A stretch of DNA of 61,141 nt, the filler included, from Bipalium vagum (lineage: Eukaryota): assembly GCA_037834085.1 (NCBI GenBank). It is 3 parts of 3 records of this genome, joined end to end, with 100 filler letters (N's around TTAATTAATTAA, not from the genome) between each part and the next. Parts side by side here need not be neighbours in the genome. Positions count along the whole stretch, not along the records: positions 1 to 17,612 come from JBBMKC010058855.1; 2 more parts are not named here. The stretch is one strand, 5' to 3'. The position numbers and the translations under genes were made by a program. The notes under the pieces were generated by a model. It searched no databases and was not told the origin of the DNA. It saw only the letters and a program-made list of their open reading frames with translations. Below, piece by piece: positions 1 through 55,059 of this stretch. Each line of letters opens with the position of its first letter. Within the stretch, counting starts at the first letter, position 1.

Positions 1-73
1 TATATTATAAATCCAATAATATATGTATATAAAACAGTTGTATTAGCAATATTCACATAGAAATATAAATTAC

Positions 74-3000
74 CCAATTTGTTCAAGTAAACAACATTAG
101 TTTCTCCCCAAAAATGATTGTCACTAATCGCCCGAGGTCTTTTAGAAATGTAACAACCAAAATTAATTTTCAATGGAGTTACAAAATGTGTTTTAGGTAA
201 ATGAGCAGTATCATCATACCAGGATTTATTATAATCCAAATTTTCATGCATTGGAGAAAGGATGAAGTCTCCATCACCTTAACAGAATTATATTGTAATA
301 TAATTTATAATTATAGCTATATATAACTACGATCAAAAAGTAATATGAATTATGAAAAAAAAAATTCACTCAGACATTTTTTTAAAACAATGAAATGGGT
401 TGTGTTGGCATATGTATCATAGATATATATCTAATTTTGACTTTATTTGTTAAACCAATGAGAAGTTAAAATGTGTTATGTGATATTTATCTTTTTAGAT
501 GTCAAATTTTGTGGAACAAAGAAGCTATTAAATTTTGCATAAAAATGAAATCAAATGCTCGGAAGCATATAAAATGATGCAAAAAGCTATTGACAATTAA
601 TAATTGTCCCAAAAACAAATTTACAAATGGTAAAAAGACTTTAAAGAAAGACGCGACTCAGTGAACGACGAAGACCACTCCATCAACATCTGGTACTAAT
701 AAAATTATCAACCAAGTCAAAGAATAGATCACAAAAAATGCTCGATTGACTGTTAAAGAAATTGATGTAGATACTATAATATGGTATGGATCCTACCATG
801 CATCTTGACTGAAATATTGAGTTTAAGGCGTTTTGAAAAAATGAATCTTAAGGTGAGAATGTTACTGTTAATATCGATCGGTTTATACTCAGAATCAGAA
901 GACATTTTTAAAATAGATTTTATTAAGTGATAAAACAAATAATATTTAAACAAATTTTCTCAGATTTGAAAATTCCTTTTTTATTAAATTAAAAAAATTA
1001 GTTTTTAAAAAAATTTCATTCATACTTTTTAAATTTTTTTTGACTGTTTTCTTAGATTACAACGGATTGGTGCACTATGAATTTGTTCCACAAGATCAGA
1101 CAATCAATACAGAATATTATTTATTTGTCGATTACGTGAATCAATTCGTCTTTGGGAGATTAACACATGATAACGCTCAGTTCCATGATTGTCATTATTT
1201 TTTGGCAAAGAATTCAATTACAGTCGTTCCAAAACTACCTTATTCACAAGATCTGGCAACTAGCGACTTTTTTGTTCTCGAAATTCAAAATATCATTGAA
1301 AGAAAAGAGATTTCAAGTAATAGAGGAGATAAATAATTCGGTTGCACAGCGAATGTCCAATACAAAAATTTATTATCAAAGATGTTTTGATACTTGTTCA
1401 AAGAAAACTATCCTAAAAAATGGATATTTTAAAATTACTTTTACTTAACATTATCTTATATATAATTATTATTAAAATTATTATAAGCTGAAAACCCGAC
1501 AGTAAAAATATTAACAGAAAAATAAAGTTATTAATCTAAGTGAAGAATATAGATAAAATCAAAAATTGTGCTTTAATATAAAAGTTGATACTTTTAAAAA
1601 GTTGATACTTTTAAAGTTGATACAGTCTGATAGATTAAATTTTCCAGTACAAAAAATTAACACTTTTCTCAATCAAATAAATTTATATAGGCATCTGGTG
1701 GAAATGTTTCCTCTATAACTAAAAAGAATACATTCCTCACGTTCAGACATTGTCAGAAATGTTAATTTTTTTCAAAAAGTCAAAGATGTTGTTATTGAAA
1801 GTCAACATCAATAAGAGAAATTGCCCATCAACTATCGGTTTCTGAGTCAACAGTACGACGAAGGGTACACAATGATTTAAAATGCAAGTCCTACGCCATG
1901 AGAAGAAGACATTTTGTATCGGCAAAAAGCAAAGAAAATCGTTTAATCCGCTCGAATTGTCTTTTAAACAAAATCAAGCATCCTGATCATCCAAACATGC
2001 TATGGTTCTTTTCTGATGAAAAACCTTTTACTCAAGATCAAAAGGTTAATAGGAATAACAATCCCCAATGTTATGCACACCAAGTTTCCATCATCTTTAA
2101 TGATATTGGGTGTTGTCAGCAATGAAGGTCATGATATGCTTCCGTATTTCTTTCCACAGGGACTTGGAATTAATGAATCTATTTATATCGAGTGTCTGGA
2201 TACATATGTGAAGCCCTAGATTGAAAAAGTTGCCCACGGAAGGTCTTATGTGTTCCAAAAAGACTCCTTGTCATACAGCATTAAAAACACAAAAATTGCT
2301 ATGGCTAAATTTTAACGACCATGTCACTCAAAACTTATGGCCACCTGGCTCACCAGATTTAAATCCCTTGGACTATTACGTATGGGGCGTCGTAGAGAAG
2401 GAGACGAACAAACATCATCATAATATCAGAGATTCATTACGGGCTTTTATAAGTTCTGCTATAAATATGAACAGAAACCATTTGATCGCGACTTGTAAGC
2501 TTTTAAGAAGCCGTCTTGAAGCTGTAATTGACACTGAAGGCGATTTTATTGAATAAATAAAACTTGTGTACTTAAAACAAATAAAGTTTCTAATATTGCT
2601 TAAAAATATACATTCTTTTTTCATTTCAAATATCTAGCGCACCCTATATAATATAAATGTAATTTTTTACTGGACAATTTAATGTATCAGACTGGATATT
2701 CTGCCTCAAAACTATAAAAATTGGATTTTTTTAAGCTTACCAATTTTCATAAAATGAGTTATATGTTCTTTTAAATAGCCATTTTTATTTGATTTTAAGA
2801 CTTTAAAAAAAAGAATAATTCATTTAAAAACGGCCGAATTATTTCACACACATCTAAAATTAAAAGAAATCTGATCTGAAAAAATGTAAGTACCACTAAC
2901 GATCTGTGAACATTGAATTAGTATATCAAATCATATCACATTTTTCACTAGAAATATGAGATATCAATAAAAATGTAGAGACGTCTTTTAATACGTCTTC

Positions 3001-6000
3001 TATAATGAATTTCATACAATTTTTTTACGAATCTATATTTTTAAAAGAAAATTACTTTGATTTCCAAAAACTTGAATTAACTTTTTAAGTAGTGTGCTTG
3101 TTTAACTCGATATATCTTATCATTATTCATTTGATTAGCAAAAATAAAATATTTAGAAAACAAAAAATATATATATTAAATTATAGATTTCCTTGTCCTT
3201 TTTGTTGACACAAATTTGACCATTGGTAAAACAGTTCATTACAAATATTTGGCACAGTTTTATCGAAATTCAAAGGGAAATATGTGAATAGCACTACTTT
3301 TATCAATGAAATAGAAAAATATACAAAGTACAGTTTTTGTACAATAATTTTAAAAATTACTTACAATGACGGTACCTGATATATTTTATTTCATTTTGAC
3401 TGAAATATGCTTTACAATTTAAAACACGTTTCAGCTTTAAAACAGTGAAAATTTTCTTTGGTTTATTATTGATTTTATTATAATCAATAATTCAACAACG
3501 AAGATATATACAGGATTTATAGGTTTCAAAATATGGAAATCTTATTTTGTTTGACCAAGAAAATAATCTCTTTATTCTTAAAAATTAAAAAAATTTTAAA
3601 AAAATCTCTCTAACTAAATCTTCCGTAAAGATATTTCTTTGCCGTCATCGTTTTCAAATCGAAACTGATTTCAGTGGGAATATATTTGAAGCCGATATCA
3701 TTTTTACAAATCCTCAACATGAAACTCTGTCAAAGCAACAGAGTAACATTTTAAAATTGTTTTTAATAACAATCTCACTTGCCACGCGTTTCTATCTTCT
3801 TGGTTGTTCAATCCGTATTGATTATTAATTTCATGACCAAAGAAGTACAAAAAATTATCCATTTCTTTGACTTTAATGAAACTTACATCACCTTAACACA
3901 AATATGATATTCGAAATTTAAAAATCAAGAGAAAATATGATGATTTCTTATCATCACAAACATACTTGAAAGTACCCAACTCATTGCCGATGGCAATGTG
4001 AACAAATTCCTATATAACCGCCAATCAGAGTACAGCATTGTTGAGTTATTGTCAGGAACATCGGGGTTTTTCTTATCCGGCCTGTATAGGCCCCAGCCTG
4101 AAGCCACATATAAATCGTTATTGTCTCTGTATGTAACCACTGGTTCATCAACATATCGACCACAACTCATTAGGTTACGATCAATGTATTCAATGAATTT
4201 AAGACTGGTTCTATTCACCGTGAAAGCCTTTGGTAACAATAATTTCATTTTATCAAAAATGAGATAAAATTAACATAAAGATGTAAAAACTAAAACCTAT
4301 CAACGAGTGTCATTCAGTTTATGAAAAGACCGAAATTAAGTTTTTAAAATGATAGTTTTGTTATCTATTAGTACAACCATCTTGTCATTAATATATTTTT
4401 TGTAATTTTACTGAAAAGGTAAATAATTATTTACGAATTTAGCGTTATCATTTAACTATTTTTATACTGATGCAGTATTAAATATATTCAACACATCCTT
4501 GTTGATAAGTGGAACTGATAATAATCTACATATAATATAAAAAGTTTGTTTAAAATTATAATTCGCAAAAATTTAAATTTATTTATTAATTATAATTATG
4601 AGTAAAATTTAAATACAATCAAATCTCGTTACTATACCACTATTGTGTGACGGTTAAAAGGCACTAGTTGTGAAGTCTGTATTTGTGCGTGCCAGGGTCT
4701 AGCACGAGATGCTTCTCCAGATAACAACTACAAAAAGCCATTAGGGGCTCAGAGTGCTCGTCTGTCTTGATAACTTTGCTGACCACCCTTAGTGTTCCAG
4801 CTAAACAACATTTAACTATTCTTTTTCCCACCCGACACGACAGCCAACTCACAACCAATGAATCCAAGTATTATAGAGAACCTCAAACGCCACTACAAGA
4901 AGCTCCTGTTAAGCCAACGACTTGAGGCCATGGATGAGGGAAAGGAGTTCAAGTTTACGTTGCTGGACTCTTTACAACCAGGAACTGCTTCGCGAAGTTC
5001 AAGTTTATTGAAGAGGAGATTCAAACTGAGGTACAAAATGCAGAGCTGCGCGATATTTTGGAATCCTTGTCTGCCGAAGAATGGACGTACCAGAACGAGG
5101 AAATTGAGGTAACTGACTTTCTTAAAGGCGATGAGCGCCTCATGACTGACAGGTCTTTCACGTTTAATTAGAAGAGATGGTGTGCAGTGAAGAGTAGGTT
5201 GGAAGCGAATACGATGTTATAACTCTTGGGGAATAAGTCCATTGTGATGCAAGCGTGCGATCAGTTAGATAACAAGATACACTTGATTAGCCAAAAGGTG
5301 TGCTAGTTGACGATTCTTAAGAGTTTTGGGCTGATAAGTAACTTTAGAAAATAAATTCGTTTTTACAGACTCTCGTTTCTATACCATTCTTGCTCAGTCC
5401 TGACAGGTGGCATAGTAACGAGATTTGATTGTAAATAAAAATACTTTAATCTAAAATTCAGTAGTAAGCAATAATTTATTCAAAATAAAAGTAACTAAAA
5501 ATTCTGAATTGCATTATACAAATTGCAATTTTTTTAACAAATAGATGAATTAGTTGAAGAGATTCGACTTATATATAGAAGTCCTTTATCAAAAATAATA
5601 TTCAAATGATCAATAAAAATGGAAATCCTTATTCAGCCTTAACTTCCTTTCCGATTCATTTAATGAAAATAATTCAAAATAAAGATTCAGAATCATATTT
5701 TAGAAAATGTTACATAAATTACTAAAGATTACTCTAGGAAAAGATCCAAAAGTCCCGCACACCCACAGTCTATTATCATCTAAAAGTTCTACTGCTTTAA
5801 TAAAGCTGTTCATGCAAGTGTAATTCATAGTTTCCCAATCACCGCTAGGAGTATGGTAATTCCAATGTTGATAATCAAACGCGTCCTCTCTAACGGACTT
5901 ATCTTTGCTAAATTTTATGCATAAATTATGAATACCAAAATATGAAATTTATGATTAACTGTTCCTGTTTCCAATTAAGACAAGATTCAAAAGCATATGA

Positions 6001-6360
6001 TTTTGGAAATTCTGGAAAATTTAACGGCCAGCTTTCTGTTTTAAACTGGAATCCAATAGATGATCCGTTCATTATTCCAGATTCCCAAGCATATGTTTCT
6101 TCACAAATAAATTTGAACTGGGATTTACTACACATAAATGAGATGATGATAATACACTTACTTCTTTATCCACTATTTTATACTTAGCTAAATAATTTCT
6201 AAGTTATTAAAAGTAATTTATTGAAATATATTATTGAAATTACTTCCCACCAACATAAACCTCGTTTTCAATTTCTTTTATCATAGAAAAATCTAATTTG
6301 TAATAAATTTGTTGATTCAATTAAATATACAGTAAAAAATCTAACCTTTTGATAAAACAT
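74..6360 (-). CDS. Divergent Sema-domain protein (semaphorin/plexin family), multi-exon, partial at both ends
   Basis: Manually spliced GT-AG exons, all phase-compatible and stop-free: 6360-6346, 6292-6244, 6198-6162, 6117-5960, 5907-5733, 4227-3966, 3891-3779, 3726-3615, 277-74. The translation shows Sema motifs in canonical order: EVYVGGKNYL, CMNSFIKAVELLDDNRLWVCGTFGSFPR, SCGRYVDEP..DLYVASG, SWVLS-DVSFIKVKEMDNFLYFFGHE, SFMLRICKNDIG, FVTPLKINFGC, VYLNKL. The signal-peptide exon and C-terminal exons were not found in the window. Confidence 0.85.
320..1450 (+). mobile_element. Degenerate mariner (DD34D) transposon, in a Sema-gene intron
   Basis: Broken transposase from ~499 (MSNFVEQR..IKF..KCSEAYKMMQKA..QIYKW, HTH region) and ORF 1040-1336 with VFLDYNGLVHYEF, HDNA and PYSQDLATSDFF. 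Boundaries are approximate. Confidence 0.85.
1623..2694 (+). mobile_element. maT/DD37D transposon remnant (~1700-2646) enclosed by a separate ~36-bp TIR pair
   Basis: FFSDEK ... QKDS..CHTA ... WPPGSPDLNPLDYYVWG gives DD37D spacing after restoring one small indel. The maT-type end ctagcgcacccta is at ~2634-2646. Outer inverted repeats cagtctgatagattaaattttccagta (1623) and tactggacaatttaatgtatcagactg (to 2694). Confidence 0.85.
4616..5431 (+). mobile_element. Internally deleted pogo/Tigger-type DNA transposon, in a Sema-gene intron
   Basis: TIRs caatcaaatctcgttactataccac / gtggcatagtaacgagatttgattg flanked by TA. Remnant QPMNPSIIENLKRHYKKLLL matches the pogo DDE_1 C-terminal motif QPxDQGII..LK..Y. 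Confidence 0.85.
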
Positions 6361-6620
6361 CTGCAATGTAACAAATAATTAAATATAATATATAATACAT
6401 TAAAAAATAATAAAATATATTATATAATTCATTAACAAAGGTTACAAGAAGATTATTAAAACTAAATTGTTTTTTAATCAATTATTTATTTACATGCAAA
6501 AAATAAGATAATTTTAAATTTCTTTTAATTTAGATGTTATTAATGATGATGAAATTCCTTTAATTATAAAACTAAACAAATTTCAAAAAAATTTTTATAA
6601 TAATAAATATAATAATAAAG

Positions 6621-6651
<31 letters not shown>

Positions 6652-6879
6652 TAATAATAATTATAATATTGTTGTTAAAGATAATAATAATAATTATGAT
6701 AATGATAATAATTATGTTGTTAACGATGATGATAACGATGATGATAATAAAAGTATTTTTCTAGGATCTGTGGTAAGTAAACTTAAATATCCTTCATTAA
6801 ATTCAATGGATTGAAATTTCTATTTATATAATATTAAAGTATGTAAGTATAAGTTTTGTTTTAATATTTTAAAATTAGA

Positions 6880-8011
6880 TTTAACAAATACCGCTTGATT
6901 TGAAGTTAAGAATCAAAATTGTACTTTTAATGGCCGAATTCAAATCAATTTGTGTTGTTAAACGAAAATTAAATGCTGAATTTGGGAAAATATCACCAAG
7001 AGAAAGTGCTATAAGAGAGACTTTTCATCGTTTTGTGAGATTGGCTCGGTGGAAGATCGTGAACGTTCTGGAATACCAGCAATGACTACTGAAAATGAAG
7101 TTCAGAAAATGAGTGAAAGTGACCCAAAATGCAGTGTTCGATCTGTTGCAACCACCTGCTTCATTTCGCAAACCACAACCCATCGAATTATGAGAGAATA
7201 GTTATCATTGAAACCCTTTAAGGTCCATTTCACGAAGGAATTACATGAAGAGGATTTGCAAGACAAAGTTGAGATGTGCAAAACCCTAATTCCAATGATA
7301 GAAAATGTAGATATTCAGGAAAATTATTTTCAGATGAAGCAACGTTTTTCCTCAAAGAATTAGTAAATAAACATAACGTCAGATATTGGTCAGAAAGTAA
7401 TCCACGTGTTACTTTTGAAACTGATAGAAATTCCCAGAAGGTAAAAATTTGGTGTGCTTTGTCAAAAAATAAAATTATCGGTCCGTATTTCTTTGAATAT
7501 GAGATTGTTAATGGCCAAAATTATCTATCAATGCTTCAAGACTATTTTGTATTTAAGGTGAGGAAAATGTACAAAGTATGTTGTCTGGTATATCAGCAAG
7601 ATGAAGCTCCTGCGCATTTTCCGAACAGGTGGATTGGTAGAGGTGGTTCAATTTGATGGGCTCCACGTTCAGCAGATTGAACTTCTTTTGGCTTCTATTT
7701 ATGGGCCCATTTAAAGAATAAGATAAACAAACCTGAAATCAAAAATATTGACAATTTGAAAATAAAAATCACCGAAAAAATAAAATGTGTTAGAACAGAA
7801 ACTTTGAATAGCGTATTTTAAATATTGTAAAAAGGATGAATTTATGTGTATCAGTTAATGGAAATCATTTCGAACAATTGTTGTAAATATTTTTATTTGA
7901 AATAAAAATTTGAAGATTTGTCTTTAATTTTATAAAGCAAATGAATAAATATCTCAATTTGCTTAAGAAATATTTAAGTTTATTTTCCGCGGGGACTAAT
8001 GGGACACCCTT
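6880..8011 (+). mobile_element. rosa/DD41D-type Tc1/mariner transposon, degenerate
   Basis: FSDEATF, VNKHNVRYWS, IIGPYFF, QQDEAPAHF, RWIGRGG..WAPRSAD motifs; 3' end ggggactaatgggacaccct. A close relative lies at 32413-33232. Confidence 0.9.
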
Positions 8012-8149
8012 TATACAATAAAACTTTTCTTTAATTACCGAAACTTTGCGCACCGAAGGTTCAAGAGCTGAGGACTCGGGTTTCAAAAACGAAGTTTGCA
8101 TTTTTTATTATCATCAAAATTTAACAAATAAAAAGTGTGATATTTTTAG

Positions 8150-10350
8150 AAATTTCTTAATCATCTACAACGTCAACAAATATAAATAAAAATGGAAATT
8201 TAACTTTTACTTTATTGCAAATGCTTTAAATCTTTCAGAAGCATATATAGTTTTTGAAATAAAAATAACTGTTATAGATGCAAATGAAGATATAACTTTA
8301 GAAAATAACCTTTTCCCTTATTTATTTGATAATGCAACTTTAAATTAGGATCAACAGAAGTAGAAACAAATCAGTATTTAGGTATTTCTAATTCTATAAC
8401 GAATTTTATAATGATTGATAAAAATAATGATGGTAAATGGTAAAAAGAAAACAGATAAAGAAAATTAAGGATATAAACTATAAAAGAATTATATGAAAAT
8501 AAAAGTTTATAGGCCTGCTTCCATTAAAATTAATGTTTGAATTTTTGCAATTTTATAAAAGAGTGATTTATAATATGCAAGGAGAACTAAATTTTATGAG
8601 AAGAATAGATATAACTAAAGAAATATTTTTTGCAGTTGGTAATACGGAAATTAAATTAAACTATATGATTTTATTTTTTCCTGAATTAATTCTAAATCCT
8701 TCAACAGAATTAAATCTTATAAGTACCGAGTGCGTCGTATATTATATATATTAATATTAAAAGTCTCAAAAACAATGATCTATAAAATTAAATCAAACCT
8801 GGCAAGCTATGGCAGCGACTTGAAGCCCAGAAAAGCACGAAAAAGGACAGTAAGAACAAAAAAATTGATTGAAAAAGTCAAAAACAGGATACGTTATAAT
8901 CCTGTGAGGTCAATGCGCAAAATGTCCAATGAAATTAGTATTTCAGAACCTACAATGAGAAGAATTATTAAAGAAGACCTTAATTCAAAGTCAAGAGCAA
9001 TAAGGAAATGCCAGTTGCCAACTAATTCACTCAAAGTTTTCAGATTAGAGAAATGTAAGAAAATCAAGTCAATGATGAAAAAAATGAAAGGAGAAAATCT
9101 TGCTCTATTCAGATGAGAAATATTTTACTGTTGACAAAGTTCAAAACAGTAGAAATGATAGGTACATCACAGATATACCTGTGATAGATGTCCCAGATCA
9201 TATTAAAAGCATTTCCAGGTCAAAACATTCCAGATGGTTTTTTGGACTGGTGTTATCAGATGGTAAAAAAATGCCTCCAGTATTGTTTGACAAAGGTTTT
9301 AAATAAAATACTGAAGGTTATCTGAAAATTTTATAAAAAAATGTTCTCCCATGGGTTCGAGCCAACTATGAAGACATGGGAAAAGTCATTTTACCCAAGA
9401 TATAGCCCCATGTCATATCTCAAAGGCAACCCAAGCGTGGCTCAAAGAAAATATGAAATTCTGGGATAAATCAATATGGCCCCCTAGCTCACCTGATCTC
9501 AATCCTCTAGATTTATCAATATGGGCTTCTGTTCAGACAGAGGCCTATAAAGTACAGCACCCTAATTTGAAGTTCCTAAAGAAAGCTTTAACGAAGGCAT
9601 GGAACAATCTATCTAAGGAGTACATTCTCAAGACTTGCTCCAGATTCAGGTCCAGGGTTCAGGCCGTAATTGATGTTGATGGTGGTCTTTTTGAATAATT
9701 GTTTTATGTATGTATAATGTAATAAAATATATGTTCATATTTAGTTCTCAATAAAATTTTACTTCATAAATTTAATTCTTTTATTTGTGCATTTATTTCC
9801 GCTATTATGCGACGCACCCGGTAGAATAGATATTGGAAATCTATAAATGTTAATTTTTTATGTTGAACATTTGAGCAAAGAAATTTAATAGATGGTAGTA
9901 CAGAAACATTGCAATTATATAATATTCCTAATAAATCTATTTATTTATTTATTGCTTTTAGAGAATCAGATTTTGACTTTACAAAAAATAATAGTTTACT
10001 TAATCAGGATTAAATTAAATCTTTAAGAATTCAAGTTAACAATTCTTATTATCCAATGAATCCTATTAAATTTGAAAAAGGTAAAAATCATTTAACATAT
10101 TCGAATTATGAAAAAGCTTGTGAATATTTCAAAAATGCGAGCGAAGCTCTTAGAAGTTATACTTCCAATCCTCAATTAAGTTTTTTAGATTTCCAAAATT
10201 TATATTCTATATTTTATGTTGATTTAACAGATCTAGATAATAAAAATCAAATGCACACCCTAAAATTTGTTCTGATGGTTTATTATGTCTTTGTTCTATA
10301 TTAAACCTCTATTATGGCTGAAATATAAATATTGTAGAAGTTTTTACATT
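8150..10350 (+). pseudogene. Polinton/adintovirus-like major capsid protein (double jelly-roll) pseudogene, split by a transposon at 8726-9821
   Basis: Frameshifted translation: LNLSEAYIVFEIKIT, ITLENNLFPYLFDNATL.LGSTEVETNQYLGISNSI, PLKLMFEFLQFYKRVIYNMQGELNFMRR, PELILNPSTELNLIS|RIDIG, YLFIAFRE, IKSLRIQVNNSYYP, PQLSFLDFQNLYSIFYVDLT. This motif series is recalled from Polinton/adintovirus MCPs. Confidence 0.8.
8726..9821 (+). mobile_element. maT/DD37D transposon inserted into the capsid gene
   Basis: TIRs ccgagtgcgtcgtatatta / tattatgcgacgcacccgg with TA duplication (8724-8725, 9822-9823); motifs YSDEKYF, QDIAPCH, WPPSSPDLNPLDLSIW. Confidence 0.92.
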
Positions 10351-10571
10351 AGATTTTCTTGTTTTCTATTTCTATTTTATTTTCTGGAATATTTTTATTT
10401 TTTACAATTTTTACATTTATTCATTTTTGAATAAAATTTAGAAATAGGTTTTATTCGAGAACACTGTTAAAATGTTTTAAAATTTACAGCTTGACAATTT
10501 TCAGCAATGAAATTCGGATTCGCCATTTTTTAAAAAATAAAAATTGATGTTTTTATCACCTTTCAAAAATA

Positions 10572-11866
10572 TTAGGTGTACAACTATGACCCTGGCTTTT
10601 TTTTTAAATGATAATAAAATTTTGTTTGCATATATATCTAAATTATATTAAATTGATTTATAAACAAAATTATTATATAATTAATAATATAATGAGACAT
10701 TTGTTTTAATATTCTTTGTTTAAATATTATAGCGATTCAAAATGTCAATATTCATCATAAATAAACGAAATTTGTGAGAAGTAATTCTACATTACTTTAT
10801 TGCCAAGAAAACTGCAGCCGAAACGTACCGCTTGCTTCAAGATACCTATGGAGAACATGCTCCTTTGATGACTAAGATTGGTTTTCCGTTTTTGAATTGG
10901 CCAATATGATACGAAAGGACAAGGAGCATTGGAAGCCACAAAAAAATTTGAAGATAGAGATTTGAGAAGGCTGTTGGACGAAGACCCAAGCCAAACACAA
11001 TCTATTCTGGCTATCGCATTAAATGTGACTTAGTAATGCATTTCAAAACGTCTGACAGCTTTAAGAAGTATTCAAAAATTAGGAATTTGGATCCAACATA
11101 AATTGACAGAAAGATGCATTGAACAGAGAAAATTAATTTGTGATGTCCTTCTTCAGAAAGAAAAAAGGAAAAGTTTTTTTGCATCGAATTATCACAGGAG
11201 ACATAAAATGGATTAGTAATGACAATCCAAAACGCAAAGCAGTTTGAGTGATGCTAGGTGAACCAGGTCCATCAACACCGAAACAAAATGTCCACGGTTT
11301 GAAAGTTATGTTGTGTATCTGCTGGTATCAGAAAGGAGTGATCTATTATGAATTTCTAAAATCTTCTCAAACACTAACTGGTGAACTTTATTGATCACAA
11401 TTAATTCGTTTCAAGCAAGTTTTGAATGAAAAACTACCGGAATGGGTGACTAGACACGAAAAGATAATTTTACAACATGATAACGCAAGACCACACGTTA
11501 ATTCGGTTGTAAATAATTACTTAGAAGGTACAAAGTGAAAAATCTTACCTCACCCGCCCTATTCACTAGACATCGCTCTTTCGCATTACCATTTGTTCCG
11601 CTCTTTACAATCAGCACTTTCCGGAGAGCGGTTCAGTTCCCTTGAAGACCTCCAAAATTGGATTGACAGCTGAATTTCATCAAAAGAGCCAGAGTTTTTC
11701 TTTCATGGAATTCATTCGTTATCTGAAAGGTGGGCAAAGGTTGTAGCTTCCAATGAAACACATTTGCAATAAATGTTTTTCAATAAACTTTTTAATAATA
11801 AATGTCTTTGTTTTCTTCTTCTCATTATTATTAATAAAAAAGCCGGAGTCATAGTTGTACACCTAA
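10572..11866 (+). mobile_element. Full-length (1295 bp) but inactivated mariner, Mos1/mauritiana-like
   Basis: TIRs ttaggtgtacaactatgaccctggctttt / aaaagccggagtcatagttgtacacctaa with TA flanks. Transposase ~10742-11772 has stops and frameshifts but retains WIQHKL, ITGDIKW, LQHDNARPH, HPPYSLDIALSHYHLF. Confidence 0.93.
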
Positions 11867-11969
11867 TAATATTATATAAATTCTGATGATCATACTAAAA
11901 GACTATAAAAAAATTAAAATTTTGTTTAATTTAAATATTTTTTTTATTTGGTTTAGACGCAGTTTTGTT

Positions 11970-14900
11970 GCTAAACACCAAAAGATGTGGATTCAATATT
12001 TTTAAAATAAAATCTCTTATCATCAAATTGATCTAATATTGTTTTATTTTACACATTTTTTCTACAAATTCATTTTTTGTTATTTTTGGATTTTTTAATT
12101 TTTTTTAAAATCTTCTAACTTCAATTCATTTTTTAATATACATTTTTGTATACCTTTATTTTTAAGCTTTTCTGTTAGATTATCAGTAGAAACGTTTTTT
12201 GATTTATATAAGCATATGATTTGGATTTTAATGCTGCAAATTCTATTAATATTTCTCCTATTATTTGATCTGTGAACTTTCCTAATACTTTTTAATATAA
12301 TCATCTTTTTCTAATTTTAAACTAGCAGAAAATTCATTTTCCTTATATTCAGAAAAACCATCCAATCTTTTAACTCATTTAAATCTTCATAAAGATAATC
12401 TGTTTTTATATTCATTATAAATGAATCAGTGTCTTGATAAATCAATTCAATATCATCTTTATATTTTTCTTTTAAAACATCATAATGAAATTCATACAAT
12501 ATTAATTTTGATAATTCTAATATACAAAATCCTAAATAAATTGGTTTATTCATTTTTGTTTTATACTTTTTATAATGAATTGCCATTAGGTTATTTGAAA
12601 AGATTTCTCTTCTTTCAAATGTTGTCTTACTTATTTGTTTCTTTGCTTTGTCTGAATCTGTGACTAATTTTACATTTACTCTTTTTCTTATATTTTTCAT
12701 AGTTTTTCCAAAGAAAGAATTATTCATTAATTTATAATTATCTTTTTCAAAATCAGAATTTGCTTTTTTTCTTAAGTCTGTAATATGTTCTATATATTCT
12801 TTTAACCATGTTTTTGTATAAAAGATATAACTTGAGGAACTTTTGTCACCTTCATAAATCTAAGATAAAATTTTAAAACTTTATAATGAACTGTATAATT
12901 CTTTTTTGGTTTTCAATCTAATAATAATTTTGGAACCTTTGTATGATGTTGATTATTTATTTCTAATAAATATTTTTGATAATCTGATGATTCTTCATCT
13001 TTTACAATTATAGAAACTTCAGCAAGAGGATATGATTCACAATATTTTTTTGTTTCTTCATCTTTATATTCTAAATCTACTTCACAAATAAATCCTAATG
13101 TTGTCTCTGAACTTTCACATTTAAATTCACATTGAGATAAATAATGATCAATCATCTGTGAATAATCTTTTTCGGAAAAAAAATCTTTTTTTTATGTTTG
13201 CAGCTCTGCTGCTTTTTAATTGCGAAACTTTGTTTCTAAACTCTTCAGGTTGATCTCTATATTCATATTTAAAATTTTTATATGGCAATGATTGACACAA
13301 TGCATTTCCATAAAGATTATTTGCATAATATAAAATAAATAATTTGGTTTTAAAAATCCTGTTAAATCTTTTTTATCAGTTAAAACTTTCATTATTTTAG
13401 GTAATTCTAGTTTATCTAATTCAAAGTAATGTTTTGATTTTTCTGTATATTTATTATGAGCTTTAATATATCTAGTTCCTAATATTGTTGATATTCCTCC
13501 TCTTATTCCTTTTTTTAAAGTTTCAAACATATTTTGATCAGTAATTAAATCTAATTAATAATCATAACCATTTTTAATAATCATAATTTCCAAGTTAAAC
13601 CAGGAGTTGATACAAAATAACAAGGATCTAAAATAAATAATTTTCTAAATTTTTCAAAAATATCTGCTAATGACTTTACATCTTGTTTAAGATATAAAAT
13701 TGTATAATCCGAATGATTTCTACAAAACTTTAAAAAACTGTTTTATATCTTTCATATTCTTGATCAGAAATATTTGATTTATTTAAAATAGTATAATATA
13801 CTTCTTTTGGTAATAATTCTGTTCTATTATATTTTTCAAAATCTTTAAAATAATCTTAAGGATAAATTCCTTTTTTATCTAGTAAGTTGAAAATCTTGAT
13901 AGCAAATGCTTTTAAATATTTTTTATCATTTTTATCTAATGCTTTTGCTGCTACATCTAAAGAAAATAAAAAAATCTTAATGAATCAACAAATGTAAAAG
14001 TTTTTATATAACTGAAAGAATTATATTTTTCATCTTTTTGGGTATTAAATAAAATATGTCATTTCTCGATAATCACTTTTTAATTTAATTTTTTTTACTT
14101 TCTGATTAATAAATTCAATATCAGCATAGATTACAAAAGGAAGTTTAATTTTATATTTATAATTCGTAAAAGATAATTTTGAACCGGGATTAGGAAAAGT
14201 ATATTTGTTTGTTTATTTAATATACAAAAATCATAAAGTTTTTTATAAGAAGATTCACAATTGTTTATTGATAAACATCTTTCACAAATAAATAATTCCT
14301 CATCTTCACTAGGTTTAAGTCTATTTCCAATTTCTTCATTGATCCATGCTTTAAAATCTTTAATTAAAATATAATGATCTTGATAAAATTATAAAGATAT
14401 TGTTTTATAATTATTAATATCCTTTAAAGATATATATAATGGGTATGATCTCCAAGATTTTCTTAATTCAATTTCTAGTTGATTAATGCAATCAATCATA
14501 TATACATTTATTCTCAAGTCATTTCCTTTTTCAAATTGATTAATATTATTTATTTTCATTGGGATATCTTTTTCATTATAATTAAATTTATATTCATTAT
14601 TTTTATACCAAATAATTCTTTCTTTATGATGAGGAATTTGATAATGGATAAAATAACAAACGATTGACCATAAAAAACATTTATTATCTTGGTTCTGAAT
14701 ATTAATAATTAAATGTGATTGGAAAGGTAAAGGAATAAATGTTCTTTTAAAACTTTTATATCATCAATTGAAAGAGTTAAATGAGAAAAACTATTAATTG
14801 TTCATCCAGATTTTTTTAATCCTTGCCAAGTGTTTTCCATTTCTTCTTCTAAATTTATAATATTTTTTGTTTCTGATTTAATATTATTTATTGTTAATAC

Positions 14901-15180
14901 TGTTCCAACAGCACAAGATGTTTTAAAAGTAAAATATTCAGAATCAGTTGGATGAAAAACATTTTATATTTAAGTTTAATGAGAATTTAAATGGTTTAAA
15001 AAATCTTCCATCTTGAATATGATAAAAAACTGTTTCTTTAATTTTAGGCAGAAAAATACTTAAATAATCTCTGACATCATTTCTTTCTTGTACTTGTTTG
15101 GAAATTAAATAATTCTTTGAAGAATTATAGGATTATTTACCGTTCTCGTACCCCCAAAGCGAGGTTTGTTTTTATTCATC
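11970..15180 (-). pseudogene. Protein-primed family B DNA polymerase (Polinton/adintovirus pPolB) pseudogene
   Basis: Motifs in order on the minus strand: INIQNQDNKCFLWSI, PFVIYADIE, FVDSL, KKGIYP, YLKQDVKSLADIFEKFR, DPCYFVSTPGLTW, KGIRGGIS, ANNLYGNALCQSLPY, GFICEVDLEY, LMNNSFFGKTMKNIRKR, NKPIYLGFCILELSK, YQDTDSF, LDQFDDKR. Many frameshifts, stops and deletions. Confidence 0.93.
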
Positions 15181-16739
15181 ATTTTAATCATTTATCACCA
15201 GATTTTTTTAATTAATAAATTTTAATATTTTTATAATTTTTAAATGTAATTACAATATTATAATTAAAACTTTTCTAGATGAAGTTCAAGTTATAGATTT
15301 AACAAATAAAACTAATGCAATATATGCTCATTAAATATTCCAGATAATATTATGGTTCAGAGTTCAACAAATCATTTAATTTACCAGAATTTAATTGAAA
15401 TCAGAAAATTTACCATTGTGGCAATCCTAACTGTTTATGTATGATACATAAACAGGTCGACTTTCGTAAAAATCTTTTTAAAATGAATCAGTGGTTACGA
15501 TTCTAAATGTAATCGAGTTTTGAATGACTTGGAAAAATCAAAAACATCTGAAAATAATTCAACAACGAAAATCTCTTGTATCCTGAACAACTTTATCTAT
15601 GCCGACAGTCTTTGAGCAGATCTAGTGTTTCACTGTAAATCGCTTCTCGAGGTCTTTTTCATTATGTGTATTGATATACCTTATCAAGTTTTCAACAGGT
15701 ATTCTGAGTGGATTCTTTCTCAGAGATGCCAACAAACGGAAATGTTCAACTGCTTAAATTTTCATAAAGTTTTAAAATAATCAATAAAATTGTGTTGATA
15801 TAGGTTTTATTTCGTTGAATGTACAAAAAGACCTTAATATTTTGTCAAATTTCATCAGACTTTGCTCTTCTGTATATATATAAAATATATGTAAATCAAT
15901 TTTAGTCCTTTTTTAATTATGACGAAACAACGATCTTTTTATATACGTTTTACACTTAGAATCAGTGTATTTTATATTTATCATAATGGTGGTGCGATTA
16001 TAAACTTAAAGTTAGAAGTTTTTAATTTTTATGCTATAAGAAATAAAAGAATTTATATAAAGGTCGATTTTCTTTAGTAATCTCATTTTAATTTGTTCCT
16101 TTATTATATTTTCAATAAAATCATAATTTTATGTCACTAATTTATGGCAAATTTAGTAGATTTAAAATTTTTTTAAAAATATTTAAATAGTTACATATAA
16201 TCTATTTAGAATAGATAAACAAAAATGACCCTGGGGTATGAGAACGGAATTATTATATTTTTGTTCTATTTCTTTTTTAAACTCAACCTTATTTTCAACT
16301 TTTATTAAATATTCTAAATCTTTATTATATTGATATAAATTTTTTTGTTGTATTTTATTATGTATGATGTTCATGATTATTTCATAATATCTGTTTTGAG
16401 GAAATTTATTTGATATTTTCATGATTTCTTCGTCAGTTAAATTATTTAGTTTTATTCGAAGTTTTGCTATTGTTAATTGATTTTGCGAAGCCTTTGGTTT
16501 CAAAATCTAGTCTTGCATTTTTAAAGAGAAAATATGATTTTTTTTCTTTTATATTTTTATATACTTTTAAGAAAAAATATAACTTTTTTGTTAATTTTAT
16601 TTTTTAATAAAAATTTGAAAAATTAAAAAAATATTAAAAATATAGATATAAAAATAAATAAAATATATTTAATGTAGTAGGGAAAACCAGATTTTGAAGA
16701 AAGAAAACGAACAAATGTGATCGAAAAATAATTATTAAA

Positions 16740-17612
16740 AACGTGCCCCCGAAACTATTTAAACTATTTTTCACTTTGAACGAGCGTATCCAAACACTTT
16801 GAGGTCGATTAAACTGAAAACTTTCTTGTCCTTGAATCTGCCAATTACGTCTGGGCGTAGCGTGGTTTTCACTCTCGTGTAGACGTACAGTCATGTCTAC
16901 GTCCAATCAGGATTTCCTTAGAAAGTTAAACAGCGTTTACACGTGATTGTGTTTCCCTGTTGGTTAGTGTGGCCGGAAGTGGTAGTGATTTAACACATGG
17001 GCTTGTGTTTCCACTGTGGGTTTACAGAGTCTACAATGGATGCCAAATTGTTGCTCCATGATTTAATCATGAAAAACCAATGCGCTGTAGGTAATGTATT
17101 GGTAATCATGATTTTATCGAATCGAACGCTCATTGAAGAACAACCCAAAACCTGATATTGTCTCACATGACTCATTTACCTGTTGTAGTAGTGAATACCC
17201 AGTCCTTGATGAAGTCATTTTGATCTCGTGTATATTCTTGTTTCCGAAAAAGTAATTTCTTGATTCACCGTTAGTCAATTTTATCATTACTTTTAGCTGT
17301 ACCTCCTCTTCAAAAATAAAGAAATCGCATTCTATACTTCTGGACCGGAAAGCCTTCGTGAAAACCCGTACCTTGATTCACCACGTGGTCTGAGAATGAA
17401 AATCACTTTCGAGGTTATCGTTGAGCCACCTAAATGCTATAGCTAGATTAACAGACGTGTCTATACGGAACCTTTTCCTTACATTATTGTTAAGTTTTTG
17501 CCTAAAAGGTTGATTTTACAAGAACTTAACTATGACTTTTAGGTCACTTAACAAGATTTAGACTCTCAGAAGGATTTACGGATGAACGTTAGGAACACTA
17601 CTGTCACAACAA
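16740..17612 (-). mobile_element. 3' part of an RLE-type non-LTR retrotransposon (R2/R4/NeSL-like), degenerate, cut by the contig end
   Basis: Minus-strand translation across frameshifts: TNTLPT, CRLCKPTVETQAHVLNH (CCHC knuckle), KHNHV (RHN motif), LRPDVIGRFKDKKVFSLIDLKV (PD..D restriction-like endonuclease). Confidence 0.75.
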
Positions 17613-17712
17613 NNNNNNNNNNNNNNNNNNNNNNNNNNNNNNNNNNNNNNNNNNNNTTAATTAATTAANNNNNNNNNNNNNNNNNNNNNNNNNNNNNNNN
17701 NNNNNNNNNNNN
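17613..17712. other. Artificial contig linker
   Basis: 44 N + TTAATTAATTAA (stop in all six frames) + 44 N = 100 nt. Confidence 0.99.
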
Positions 17713-32231: not shown

Positions 32232-33275
32232 TTGGGTTGTTCAGAAAATTACTTCGTTTTTTTATAATAATCCTTAAATCTTAATTTAAAGCACCTAAAT
32301 TATTTTTAAAGTTGGGATATTCAAATTGCCTGGTAGATGGCAGAGGGTCGGAACAAAAAGGACAATAAATCATTGATTAAAATATTTATTACTAATAAAA
32401 CTTTTGGTCTCTCTTTAAGGTCCATTTCACGCAGGAATTACACGAAGAGGATTTGCAAGACAAAGTTGAGATGTGCAAAACCCTGGTCCCAATGTTAGAA
32501 AATGTGGATATTCAGGAAAATATTTTCCTTTCAGATGAAAAAACGTTTTACCAAAAAGGATTAGTAAATAAACATAACCTCAGATATTGGTCAGAAAGTA
32601 ACCCACATGCTACTTTTAAAACTACTAGAAAATCCCGGTGTGCTTTGTCAAAAAATAAAATTATCGGTCAGTATTTCTTTGAAGATGAGACTCTTAATGG
32701 CCAAAATTACCTATCAATGCTTCAAGACTATTTTATGTTTGAAGTGAGGAAAATATGCAAAGTACGGTCCCAGGTATTTCAGTAAGATGGAGCTTCTGCG
32801 CATTTTTCAACAAATGTACGATAGTATCTTGACACTCATTTTCCGAACAGGTGGATTGGAAGAGGTGGTTCAATTCGAAGGGCTTCAAGTTCACCAGATT
32901 TAATTCCTCTTGATTTCTATTTATTGGGATATTTAAAGAATAAGATATACAAATCTGAAATCAAAAATATTGACGATTTGAAAAAAAAATCACAGAAGAA
33001 ATAAAAAGTTTTACCACAAAAACTTTGAATAGCGTATTTTTAAATATTGTAAAAAGGATGAATTTATGTATATCAGTTAATGGTAGTCATTTCAACAATT
33101 GTTGTAAATATTTTTATATGAAATAAAAATTAAAAGATTTTTCTTTAATTTTATAAAGCAAGCGATTAAATATCTCAACTTGCATAAGAAATATTTAAGT
33201 TTACTTTCCGCGGGGACTTATGGGATACCCTGTACTTTTTACTAAAAATGCGAAGTGACTTTCCGAAAAACCCAA
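32232..33275 (+). mobile_element. 3' portion of a rosa/DD41D element (32413-33232) inside a mariner-type TIR pair
   Basis: LSDEKTF, Q*DGASAHF, RWIGRGG, SPDLIPLDFYLLGYLK; rosa end ggggacttatgggataccctg-TA. Outer TIRs ttgggttgttcagaaaattacttcg / cgaagtgactttccgaaaaacccaa. Confidence 0.88.
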
Positions 33276-41524: not shown

Positions 41525-41624
41525 NNNNNNNNNNNNNNNNNNNNNNNNNNNNNNNNNNNNNNNNNNNNTTAATTAATTAANNNNNNNNNNNNNNNNNNNN
41601 NNNNNNNNNNNNNNNNNNNNNNNN
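41525..41624. other. Artificial contig linker
   Basis: Identical 44 N + TTAATTAATTAA + 44 N spacer. Confidence 0.99.
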
Positions 41625-45642: not shown

Positions 45643-48600
45643 GCGACTCAAATGCGGCATTTTCCTCCGACGGCGCAGCTGTCTCCGTTGTCGGCCGTAT
45701 TTTGATGACATCGTTGTTTCGGTGGCACTGGAGAACCTGTGGATGACGAGAACAATTACAATAAAATCGTTATTTTTTAAATAAAATCAATTAATTTGAT
45801 ATTGAAATGAATAAATCTTGTGCAGATTTTAATTAAAACTGGAAGGAAGAGCTTCAAGCAAGTTGTTCTATCAACCCAATGCAGAGCTTTAAATAAATTA
45901 TGCACTTCCTAGTCGAATCGATTATACCACACTGGTCTTTTCCAAAGAACATGTCAATCCTTTAAACCACGCTATTCTACACAATCCAGGCACATTTCAT
46001 TGTTACTTTCTTTCGTTAATTCACGACCCCACACCTCTTTGCATTCAACATTAATCAGGTCAGTCTATGAAGGTCTCTTCAGTTAAGACTTTTCAGTAAA
46101 ACAATGAATATTTCCGTAAGAAATTAACAAATCTATTTGTCGTTGGTGTCTTGAGACTCGGGGATTCTTTAGAGATGTCTGGGATTGGAGAGATATCAAC
46201 ATCAGCTCGTATAAATGAAAATTACACCAAATATTTGATGTAAAGTTTTAATTGGACACCAAACCAAGAAAAAGAACCAACCTGCTGGAATCATCTTCTG
46301 AGTCGAAGAAGCTTGTGGTGTCAAGATCACTGCTCATCATAGACGACGAGGACTCGTAGATGGGCTGTTGCTTCCCGTGACAATTATTTGGAGCATTGTT
46401 AATGTTATTGCCGTTGCCGTTGTTACTGATACTGTTGTTATTGATCGAATTGGGAGCTTGGGAATTGCGCATCTTTTTCAATTTTACTACTGCAAAAATA
46501 AGACGGTTTTACTTTTATCGCTGACAAGAGACGGAAAAAATTTTTAAAAAAAAAAGGAAAATGTAAAAATGTGTAGAGGAAACCCCAACTGACCTCCAGT
46601 CAATATATATCAATAAAAACCGGGATCGGAAACAATAAATAATAAAAAATAATAATATTTCGAAAAATCGATTAAAGTCTGAACATGATTCCGATTATTT
46701 ATTTCGCAGACAAAAAGAAGGATGACAGAGCGCTGAATCCAACGGTCTCCCGTGTTGCTATGTCACTCCGTGCACGGTCGCAGAAACAGATACAGCACAC
46801 TCACACGCACACGCACACAATCTCTAACGCAGCACTCAATCACAAACTCACACACACAACGGCACGCACACACTCTGGGCAATCCTCCACCAACGTGAGC
46901 TTGCCCAAGGCAGTCTGGCATTATGACGGGCACCGTCACTTCCTGAATTACGTAAGGGACCTCTGGGAGAAAACAGCACAGTCTCACCGGCTGGAGGTGG
47001 TAACCGATCCCAGGTAACATGGACGAGTTGAGATGTGAGGGAGCAAGCGTTGGGAAAAAGCACGAATCGATGATACTTTTCGAAAGCCACATTCATCTCT
47101 GGCAGAAGATGGGAAACGTTATATTTTTTTGTAAAGGGCATTATTCCCTAAAATAAATATTTACTTAATTATTGAAAAATTTTTCTCGTTCCTCCATTTT
47201 TTATTGGTAAATTAAACCGTTGGACATTCCATTAACTTTCGCGTTGGCCAATTAATCAATTCTCCGATTTTATTATCATTGATTTTTAATATAAACGATT
47301 ATTGTTTTATTATTGATTATTGGCGATGATAATAATTATTGGCTTTATCATCATCGAAACGGGCTATAATCACAAAATTGACAAAAAGGTATCCCAATAT
47401 CGTCGAAAGGGTCGACGACCAAATCCTCATCGCACCTCATCCAGCAACACCATCACCCTGGAATCGGCCATCGGAGGCAGAAATGCTAATGATGCTAATT
47501 ACGAATGATAATTATAATTGTCCACATGAGATGTAGGGATCTGCGAAGCTCGCGACTGACGAGACGAGACGAGCTGCTGCTTCTGCAAATGTCGAGCAGA
47601 TTCGTGTGGCCAGTGATACGTCACTCACAAAGTGGTTAGTACTACTTTCACCACATTGTGAAGGGGCAGGGGAGGGTTGGTCGTTTTGGGCGCGATTTCC
47701 TTCGACAGCGTCGTAAAGGGCAAAGAAAAGTGACGGGTGGAGCTGAGTATTTGGGTTTCTGGTCGCGAAAAACATTGTCGAGTGAAATGAGGAACATGTA
47801 TCTATCATCAGTTTTATGTATATATATCCATATCAATGTCCAAAAATCGATAACTGATGTTTCCCTTTTTTCGTTGAATATTATCAATTTCTGGGATATG
47901 TTTTGGGAGAGAGGAGGGGAACTTGTAGAGAAAACAACGCAATAAGGACAAGATTGTAGAGAAGATAAAGAAATGACGAGTAAATCTAGATGGTCTTTGG
48001 AGTCAAGTATCTCAACTAAAAAGGTCTGAGAGATCAGGACCCGAGATGAAGAGTGTGTTAGGAGAGAGAAGTTAAAGAGAGAAAGTTGCTGAACGGAAAG
48101 GGGGTATTGTAGAGAGAGACTGAAAGAAAGGTCATAGAGTTACTACTGTGTCCAATCGGATCTTAGCAGTCAAGTGTCTCATCTCAGATGAGCTGGAGAA
48201 ACAAGATCCGAGACGAAAGATCTGTAAAACGAGAACTAAATAGAATCACTTACTGTGTTTGAAATCACTGAACTTTCGCAACGGCGGAACCTTATCTGAA
48301 ACAACAAAATACAGGCTCAACGACAAGAAGCGCAGCATATCATCCATCACCTTCGTTGTAAATCGAATCGATCTCATCGAACGCATCATCCGTTTCATCC
48401 AGAGTGATCTTTTCCGGACCGGTGAACTTGTGAGTCTGCTTTTGAGCTTTGCCAGTGTTCTCATCCGGTTTTTTGCTGCCGGCTGACGGTTTGTATTGAG
48501 ACTGCTTGCTGAAACTGCTGCACATTAATCAGAAACCATTTCCAAACGGAAACATTTCAAATACCGAAAACTGGGCGACTTGGGATCGTTGGAATCGACG

Positions 48601-48986
48601 ACGGCGGGCTTGTCTTTGACTTTGTCTGGCTCGTTAATCAAAATATCCTTGCCCGACGATGAGTGATTATCCGACTGAGTACTGCCTTCGGAAACGACCA
48701 GCCACGAAACGACTCGTCCATTCACGTAAGGTAGCTTGGCATCGTCGTCCGTTATTTCCTCCTTCACCACACTGCAACAGACACCAACACGTAAACCATG
48801 ACGGCGTTAATGACAGAAAACCAACCCGAAATCATCGTCGAGAGACTTGAAAAAGAATTTGTAATTGGGACGATTGAGTGCATTTTTGAAATCGCCCAAT
48901 GTAATTTGGTCTGGTGATGAGTGGAATTTTATGAGATAAGGCGTTTCCTCGTCGTCGACATAATAAATGATTCGTGTTTCCTCCAT
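45643..48986 (-). CDS. dvl: Dishevelled, 5' half (DIX domain, Ser-rich linker, basic region); PDZ and DEP exons not found in this contig
   Basis: Exons 48986-48826, 48771-48565, 48517-48351, 48295-48254, 46489-46282, 45736-45643, all GT-AG and phase-compatible. Translation: [54 protein letters not shown]|[25 protein letters not shown] (DIX), [23 protein letters not shown]|[31 protein letters not shown]. Confidence 0.96.
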
Positions 48987-49929
48987 GTGGCGGGCGTTAG
49001 AAACCCCAACAAAAATTAATATTCAATAAAATTAATAAAAATTTATTTATATTTAAAACGGTTTAGTGCAGCTAAACAAAACGTTTAAATTATCAATTTA
49101 TTTGTTAACATTAACAAATGGACATTAAAAAAAACATTTTCTTTTTAAATCAGCCAATGATAAATGTTGTGATCAATTTTTAACCATTAAATCCATTTTT
49201 GAATGTTCGATTTTTAATTAATTTTTGTGACTGTTTTTAATTGATTTCAAAATGATTTATCAATCGATATTTTCTTTTCTAATCGAAAATGTTTCTCTTT
49301 TTTATGATCTCTAGTGTCAATCGATAAATTCTTATTTAATTATATCTTAAATATTAAAATCAATTTTTTATAAAGAAATTTTTAATCGATTTTGTGGCAC
49401 GTTTCACTTTAAAAATCAATTATCCCAAATTTTTATGTTTTTAATACTTTTTATTTCATAAAGATGAAATGAGATCATCCCAGATCCGACCACGTTGTTC
49501 TTTTCAAGTTTGTAAGATTATTTGTCAGACCCTTTTTACTGGTAATTCTTAATTCCTTTACAAATCAATTGATACTGGAATTTACACACCCGTTCCCTCT
49601 TAATGTGTTCAATCAAGAGTACATGTTATCTCTAACTCTATTATAAAACCACAACATAAGTACTATCGATTGATTTGAGCTAAAGACTTTAGATGCCTCT
49701 GAACCTCAGGTGGAATGGTGAGTTTAAGGTCCTTTCGCGATTTCACATGTGTGTATCAAAAGACAGGTTCATAAAGAGAGGAAACTAATAATGAAAAACG
49801 AGACAAAGATATCCAATGTTTATTTTGCAAAAATTGAAAGTTTTGTCCATCGGCTCTGGGGCATAAATCGAAACGGTTTACAAAATTAACAGAAAGGTCA
49901 GCGAAGATCCAATGAAAATTTGTTTTCAT

Positions 49930-54810: not shown

Positions 54811-55059
54811 TTTTAAAACTTAATTTAACATTTTTTCGGACCAGAAAGATTTTTTGTCACATTAAATTTTGTAAATTGAAAAAAAATTTTAATTTTAAAA
54901 TTAGTTTTGCACTTTAAAAGTAAAATTGCATTAATCAATAATTAATCGTTTACAGTGAAAAACAAAGTTTTATTGATTAACGATTTTTTGAGAGCGGCTT
55001 TGTTTTAACGCACCAAAGTTCGATCAAAGACGGAATAATTTTCAAATTATGCGATTGTA

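Follow-up and report, generated by a model that had tools for sequence, protein, structure and literature searches.

Introduction

Polintons, also known as Mavericks (class Polintoviricetes), are described as carrying two inward-facing modules on opposite strands, bounded by (AGT)2 termini and a 6-bp target duplication; in vertebrate genomes most copies are decayed (96%) and some hosts hold hundreds of defective ones (PMC8097293, available in part). These traits are shared by the family to which the locus analyzed here belongs. The window is a stretch of 61,141 nucleotides from the Bipalium vagum assembly GCA_037834085.1, and the locus, at positions 8012-16794, lies on contig JBBMKC010058855.1 (window 1-17612). 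We interpret it, with a probability of about 0.9, as a broken Polinton/Maverick (adintovirus-like) element of which the right-hand part survives, with three transposon insertions as well as deletions, and as one of at least 150 related copies. The element works like a Polinton and at family level is one. A sequence-only reading had proposed a Polinton/adintovirus-like endogenous relic with convergent capsid and polymerase pseudogenes, and this proposal is supported by what follows; neither of the outcomes named as refuting it, a capsid without double-jelly-roll character or a polymerase of plasmid or cellular type, was observed.

In vertebrate Polintons the ATPase gene accompanies the polymerase, whereas here it is found on the capsid arm, and the capsid of the present family is distant, at 46-48% identity to the nearest proteins; the available part of the vertebrate account makes no mention of the end motif recurring in inverted form further inside (PMC8097293). 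With Alpha adintoviruses, as far as the accessible text of PMC8502044 goes, the family shares a B-family DNA polymerase (PolB) close to that of bidnaviruses and a phospholipase A2-like (PLA2-like) gene ahead of the integrase. Alpha adintovirus is by that description the pfam03175 archetype, its PolB clustering with the Mayetiola exemplar, whereas PF03175 is matched by only 2 of the 61 homologs of the window PolB, which speaks against a neat class label, and is matched by a second polymerase class of the same genome. Beta adintoviruses are marked by a GasderminX gene and a Terrapene-class PolB. Spodoptera (Sf) Mavericks share an endonuclease-VII-like insert in PolB (PMC5803895, in part), represented here by PF02945 matches in 10 of the 61 homologs.

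Two distant polymerases on closely related elements, interleaved on trees of other genes, are also known from nematode Polintons with pPolB1 and pPolB2; Jeong et al. report this interleaving in Caenorhabditis briggsae, and nuclease inserts in the polymerase are another shared trait (10.1101/2023.08.22.554363, in part). The host is a different one here, and both types are abundant (1279 and 764 candidates at first look). Elements that are hybrid in polymerase and capsid class are described by Starrett et al. (PMC8502044, same partial text), and replicase mosaicism in Polisuviricotina, with reshuffled replication and capsid modules and two-replicase elements, by Barth et al. (10.64898/2026.10.13.758929, in part). 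With the latter may be compared sibling locus L226 (G000:C253634), in which both polymerase classes face each other across a putative protease-to-minor-capsid block. Fold-back sequence at element ends is shared with Halocafeteria virophages and Polinton-like viruses; the present elements differ in their animal host, protein-primed PolB (pPolB), stem of about 24 bp, long variable loop and a tip that is itself paired (10.64898/2026.07.28.741278, in part). Both family traits, the end stem-loops and the interleaved polymerases, have precedent in these sources, as protist terminal palindromes and nematode polymerase exchange.

Capsid and polymerase pseudogenes

Searches with intact homologs (tblastn) confirmed the capsid and PolB pseudogenes in convergent orientation, on the strands originally claimed. 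The parts concerned are as follows.

8012-8106, strand not assigned: non-coding piece of the element subfamily, 5′ of the capsid gene, the leftmost recognizable element DNA
8109-8725, plus strand: major capsid pseudogene, 5′ part, with two frame changes and at least one stop (tblastn with P0121)
8726-9821, plus strand: Tc1-type DNA transposon within the capsid gene, with inverted ends and TA on both flanks
9822-10233, plus strand: major capsid pseudogene, 3′ part, with two stops and about 55 C-terminal residues missing
11975-15129, minus strand: protein-primed PolB pseudogene, N-terminal zinc-finger part missing, at least 10 frame changes
14665-14685 and 14359-14379, minus strand: OTU-like Cys/His motifs of PolB, seen by eye
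14114-14134, minus strand: PolB Exo I
13677-13694, minus strand: PolB Exo III
13307-13324, minus strand: PolB Pol A
12701-12733, minus strand: PolB Pol B
12419-12439, minus strand: PolB Pol C

The motif names (Exo, Pol, OTU-like) are presumed ones; an N-terminal OTU domain on PolB is a trait of the proposed Adintoviridae. The non-coding piece at 8012-8106 has four other matches in the genome (77-95% identity), all co-located with Polinton sequence and two of them directly ahead of a capsid 5′ end.

P0121, a natural protein that is intact and 413 aa long, aligns with the capsid pseudogene in two blocks whose order is kept, residues 12-228 with window 8109-8721 (E 2e-25) and residues 234-356 with 9834-10229 (E 7e-30). 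Overall the gene carries two frame changes and at least three stops. Its span had been put at 8150-10350; the gene itself stands, the right edge does not, and homology extends from 8109 to 10233. That the gene is split by a transposon was borne out by the Tc1-type element at 8726-9821, whose DDE_3 match is under cut-off (E 4e-4): sibling locus L062 is continuous across the site, and a contig of a second organism (run X2) also joins the capsid across it. Run X2, compared with window 7900-17400, holds both the capsid and the polymerase family.

At DNA level the 5′ part is 73-87% identical to its siblings and has a weak match to PF21738. The profile comparison suggested by the sequence-only reading gave, on window fragments, a weak Pfam double-jelly-roll match under cut-off (E 0.0017); Pfam searches of single window fragments yielded weak matches only, for both genes. 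Over cut-off were P0121 (91 bits to PF21738) and the sibling copies (30.6-41.3 bits). A model of P0121, folded together with 91 natural relatives, reached a pLDDT of 92.8, and its best matches in the PDB are the capsids of PBCV-1, iridovirus, Sputnik and mavirus (E 3e-15 to 1e-11, TM-score about 0.6); it also matches the PRD1 capsid and a range of viral capsids including that of MELD virus. The intact capsid homologs are thus predicted to adopt the double-jelly-roll fold, and this Polinton hallmark is present in the family by profile (siblings and P0121) and by the modeled fold of P0121. A sequence search of the PDB with P0121 returned nothing relevant. An Atlas search of the capsid led to the PF21738 cluster with a score of 0.98, the recognition value being under the Atlas threshold.

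The lineage had been called little described, which holds in part, for the capsid. A word search found P0121 and P0122 as the only matches (2 of 617 candidates), at 46-48% identity to a sibling capsid, while an exhaustive search gave 667 proteins at E ≤ 0.001 and 19 at ≤ 1e-30. Judged from these comparisons, the capsid lineage is less than 50% identical to its nearest database relatives, in an animal genome that appears to bear a heavy Polinton load.

Intact homologs of the polymerase cover window 12107-14745 with E down to 1e-95, and DNA similarity to siblings begins at about 11943-11990 and ends at 15129-15138. The gene proposed at 11970-15180 is confirmed except for its outer edge, since homology stops at 15129-15138 and a separate repeat begins. 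The frame changes were counted by eye from the frames of high-scoring segment pairs. Exonuclease and polymerase motifs had both been noted; the polymerase part holds, but the exonuclease region is only partial because about 600 bp were deleted at 14061/14064. Of nine siblings compared at this point, six are longer than this copy by about 580-645 bases and one by 315, and the other two carry separate lesions. The deleted DNA corresponds in siblings to the endonuclease-VII-like insert and the Exo II motif.

P0001, a homolog 66% identical to the window PolB piece, was modeled with a pLDDT of 85.9. Its nearest viral structures (Foldseek) are PolBs of MELD virus, Drosophila-associated adintovirus 3 and Adintovirus sp. 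(E 1e-35 to 1e-32), followed by bidnavirus-like PolBs (E 5e-31 to 5e-28). Among solved structures phi29 polymerase leads with Z 21.1 (root-mean-square deviation 3.3, 331 aligned), the next reaching 10.7; cellular B-family polymerases are far behind. With the window motifs, this modeled fold points to a protein-primed PolB, the second Polinton hallmark, and the bidnavirus-like structure together with the over-cut-off PF08398 match of a sibling PLA2-like gene provides features of Alpha adintoviruses. The idea that PolBs of the endonuclease-VII type belong to the Beta class was dropped, among other things in view of these structural neighbors. Searches of PDB sequences with the PolB alignment and P0003 gave nothing relevant, P0001 had no tblastn match in plasmid and phage collections, and P0003 patterns found nothing in viral_contigs.

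The family in the genome

The genome comprises 440.8 Mb in 272,664 contigs. Looking for further copies, as the sequence-only reading had advised, was productive: for PolB all 150 scored matches (of 1279 candidates) were accepted, for the capsid 150 of 150 (of 1225 candidates), and for a piece of the ATPase 150 of 150 (of 2307 candidates). Many of these carry stops, and matches are not copy numbers. The locus itself is ordinary, being a single decayed member of a family that is very abundant.

The siblings supply genes that the window lacks. Pox_A32 is over cut-off, as is the PLA2-like gene (Phospholip_A2_4, PF08398), and the rve integrase is under cut-off on fragments (E 4e-6 and 5e-5). Integrase is linked to capsid genes in L076, L128, L129 and L136, and the Pox_A32 ATPase lies directly ahead of the capsid gene in many sibling loci; the window has neither. 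The missing genes had been explained as truncated or too diverged to see. Truncation is the right option, since ATPase and integrase are readily recognized in siblings and are absent from contig JBBMKC010058855.1.

Across 60 loci the common order is integrase, probable protease, probable minor capsid, ATPase and capsid, the first three not necessarily adjacent, facing the polymerase; the loci were selected by matches to particular genes, so that tallies drawn from them are not random samples. Capsid and polymerase are convergent in 20 of the 25 loci that have both within 3.6 kb. The candidate for the adenain-like maturation protease is a sibling open reading frame (ORF) that matches the genome's single over-cut-off PF00770 hit with E 7e-8 over 37 aa; it has no protease match in Pfam or the PDB. 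A conserved sibling ORF ahead of the ATPase is the probable minor capsid gene, although neither Pfam nor PDB sequences support this; the name is presumed from gene order. Among the sibling loci, L272 (G000:C206809) has at 1-4012 a polymerase-only stretch between two element ends, either a deletion derivative or a stand-alone polymerase module, and L131 has at 192-608 a Hox-type homeodomain exon (by eye) about 2.6 kb from a Polinton remnant.

By what is established for Polintons, the ancestor of the window copy would have been inserted by its integrase. It would have been copied as linear DNA by a polymerase primed from its terminal-protein domain (PMC11071308, in part), and the ATPase would have loaded this DNA into a jelly-roll particle. 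The usual layout in the family is a pair of inward-pointing arms, one with integrase and capsid genes and the other with the polymerase; recombination between co-resident elements would have exchanged such arms. Each end is able to fold into a stem-loop.

Terminal motif and stem-loops

The sequence-only reading saw no AGTAGT-type termini. This was incorrect, as one such motif is present, in an inner copy.

16673-16696, plus strand: AGTAGT-type terminal motif, inner outward-facing copy, a conserved block

Similarity to the element fades by about 16794, and an outer partner of the motif was not found on the contig (window 1-17612). In the family (AGT)2-type ends do occur, the window motif being an inner copy only. 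The motif has 117 exact matches in the genome as against none for the reversed control. There are 88 distinct sites in 291 loci, of which 38 are outer, 42 inner and 8 unclassified, by a rule drawn from the same data that it sorts. Outer ends have unrelated flanks (mean identity 0.31), inner copies conserved ones (0.69). The paired end motifs were also considered as a separate miniature transposon, a reading that was given up because conserved element interior lies on one side and unrelated host DNA on the other. Both outer ends are found in L273 (G000:C106225), where a mini-element of 1.67 kb (3668-5340), nested among other Polinton pieces, has a 6-bp target duplication (n = 1).

An inverted copy of the motif is present in 27 of the 33 outer ends with enough sequence, ending 87-307 nt inside, compared with 0 of 35 outside and 2 of 660 shuffles. 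The first 14 of these ends, when folded, gave -22 to -48 kcal/mol versus -9 to -18 for base shuffles, and all 14 have 19-24 of their last 24 bases paired. Furthermore, in 22 of the 28 ends compared (out of 39 outer ends) the outer copy carries the same three-site variant as the inner one; permutations, which ignore the relatedness of subfamilies, gave a mean of 6.5, and 0 of 5000 reached the observed count.

Of two possible roles for the stem-loop, that of an end signal kept for protein-primed copying is the most likely, ahead of one as a primer. Alternatively, the 3′ tip could fold onto the inner copy and prime synthesis itself, making replication partly parvovirus-like and less dependent on the polymerase. 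The position of the inner copy, the pairing of the tip and the shared variants would all fit such self-priming. Still, we consider it unlikely: the family keeps a full protein-primed polymerase and AGTAGT tips, which are typical of protein priming (PMC8097293, PMC11071308, both in part), the loop varies more than threefold in length, concerted change of the two arms can be explained by fold-back copying with no role in priming, and the permutation ignores subfamily relatedness. In addition, the Halocafeteria palindromes occur mostly with elements that have no pPolB, according to the available part of that preprint (10.64898/2026.07.28.741278). In the open literature this preprint is the only precedent found for an end hairpin, which is no claim of absence from print.

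Probable exchange of polymerase arms

Between the two genes of the locus lies a further remnant, interrupted by a transposon.

10225-10571, continuing at 11867-11923, minus strand: accessory gene remnant, zinc-ribbon/HNH-like, labeled by eye
10572-11866, plus strand: mariner transposon between the capsid and polymerase genes, with TA-flanked inverted ends

The HNH-like remnant matches a sibling ORF at 10225-10529 (tblastn, E 6e-13) and has no clear match in Pfam or NCBIfam. The mariner (Transposase_1 over cut-off, E 1.6e-13) splits it from its upstream sequence, and siblings L138, L224 and L233 are continuous at that place.

The second PolB class has 764 candidates in the genome and matches PF03175 with 56 bits. 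A 340-aa piece has no BLASTP similarity to the window's type (best E 0.13 against P0003), and yet both classes sit on the same capsid lineage: among the 60 large loci, 15 combine the capsid with the second polymerase and 12 with the window's type. No longer homologs of the second polymerase were found, which is weak evidence. An insert in the second class (L221 296-898, L234 4953-5492) recalls a VSR nuclease by eye; it has no database match, PDB sequences included.

On a capsid tree of 412 columns and 19 rows, polymerase type changes eight times, at least five of them forced by strong branches; for this tree 7 of the 25 sibling loci were dropped as short or unmatched and the window was added. 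A tree of 1188 columns from 14 of the 20 convergent loci has five changes, at least four forced, and rejects a single clade (approximately unbiased test, p = 4e-5). The polymerase arm has therefore likely been exchanged several times between co-resident elements, though the interleaving might still stem from misassembly or from recombination after insertion.

The HNH-like gene accompanies the second type in six of the eight loci that hold it and the window's type in none, and it is missing from all 20 contigs chosen by the window's PolB. Because this partner of the second class sits here with a PolB of the first, the window copy is likely a hybrid of arms from elements with different polymerase classes. 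A more far-reaching scheme, in which fold-back ends serve as a self-priming origin independent of the polymerase, the polymerase arm is a freely exchangeable cassette and the window copy is a fossil of such exchange, appears doubtful to us.

Alternative origins of the locus

Several points weigh against reading the locus as part of one Polinton. Integrase, ATPase, protease and minor capsid genes are all missing from the window, as are an outer terminus and a target duplication, and family membership rests on the siblings for that reason. Among the loci fetched from this fragmented assembly no whole element has both ends and all genes, as a Polinton unit of 12-25 kb with its full gene set between the repeats would. 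Gene order varies, with 5 of 25 capsid-polymerase pairs non-convergent, and the tallies come from gene-selected loci. The minor-capsid identity is without sequence support, the protease link is weak and the target duplication is a single case. Furthermore, the folds are those of relatives 50% and 66% identical to the genes of the window, not of those genes themselves.

The capsid and polymerase parts could instead derive from two Polintons, joined after insertion by nesting and deletion and never part of one active element. Such an origin would explain why an HNH-like gene otherwise found with the other polymerase class occurs here (6 of 8 loci; 0 of 20 contigs) and why the matches to siblings change over between 11923 and 11943; among the siblings, nesting and jumbling are frequent. 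We regard it as improbable nonetheless, in view of the convergent layout and spacing, which are those of the family (20 of 25), and of the equal decay of both parts, at about 82-87% to their nearest siblings. The change-over lies in the short stretch separating the arms, which is also where an exchange in an active element would be expected. That the contig is free virus or foreign DNA, or holds host-domesticated genes or a linear-plasmid polymerase, is very improbable: although related capsid sequence occurs at high depth in the run of a second organism and the window joins unlinked contigs of different G+C content, host-type transposons lie within and around the genes, both genes bear many lesions, contigs of run X1 (possibly the source data, hence not independent) cross three junctions without differences at depth 18-21 like other unique pieces of the locus, and the polymerase structure points to adintovirus and bidnavirus PolBs, with a capsid gene adjacent.

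Flanking and neighboring sequence

The right-hand side of the relic and its border consist of the following parts.

15130-16250, strand not assigned: separate high-copy repeat of 1.12 kb with GG-ended inverted termini, in place of the PolB N-terminus
16252-16506, minus strand: conserved small ORF of the family, 3′ end lost, near element ends
16795-17488, strand not assigned: internal fragment of another repeat, abutting the element where the outer terminus should be

Forty of 2402 candidates were scored for the 15130-16250 repeat and yielded 52 matches at 76-98% identity; in siblings L148 and L150 its place is taken by about 500-660 bp of element DNA. The repeat seems to resemble a non-autonomous Merlin-type element. 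The AT-rich ORF at 16183-16503 had been assigned tentatively to the element, which is correct only from 16252 onward. The small ORF has 150 of 150 scored matches (505 candidates in the genome) and no notable Pfam match; it lies ahead of PolB in L148 and L150 and ahead of PLA2/integrase in other siblings. It was considered as the PolB N-terminus and dropped as such, siblings carrying it as a separate ORF.

To the left of 8012 another Tc1-type element is present, and no sequence of the Polinton was found beyond it. Two Tc1-type copies (83%) occur in the window, at about 6885-8013 and at 32413-33234, the first abutting the left edge of the relic. A TA-flanked element with inverted ends at 4616-5431 has DDE_1 over cut-off. 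Broken or spliced frames at 3928-4269 and 5703-6165 (minus strand) recall a Sema domain by eye; the putative host gene at 3928-6165 has no database matches.

The runs of N at 17613-17712 and 41525-41624 hold a six-frame-stop linker and join three unlinked contigs. A link of the relic to DNA right of 17612 was therefore discarded, the spacer being an artificial linker. The third contig (C1401, 41625-61141) has a G+C content of mostly 0.3-0.45, compared with 0.2-0.3 elsewhere. Host Dishevelled exons (DIX and Dishevelled domains; 46251-49022, minus strand) and an acyl-CoA-binding protein gene (55039-55617, plus strand) are on this unlinked contig. Dishevelled, like the homeodomain read by eye in a sibling locus, marks the host as an animal.

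Implications

With its frameshifts, stops, deletion of about 600 bp and three nested transposons, the window copy is dead and, as its sequence reads, would encode nothing functional. The locus has no function of its own; it is the family that is useful. Polymerase exchange has probably been repeated in it, outside nematodes, and the arms of its end stem-loops change together. These traits bear on how Polinton replication starts and on how replication modules are swapped. Having many copies, the family could show where arms recombine and whether both polymerase classes use the same ends.

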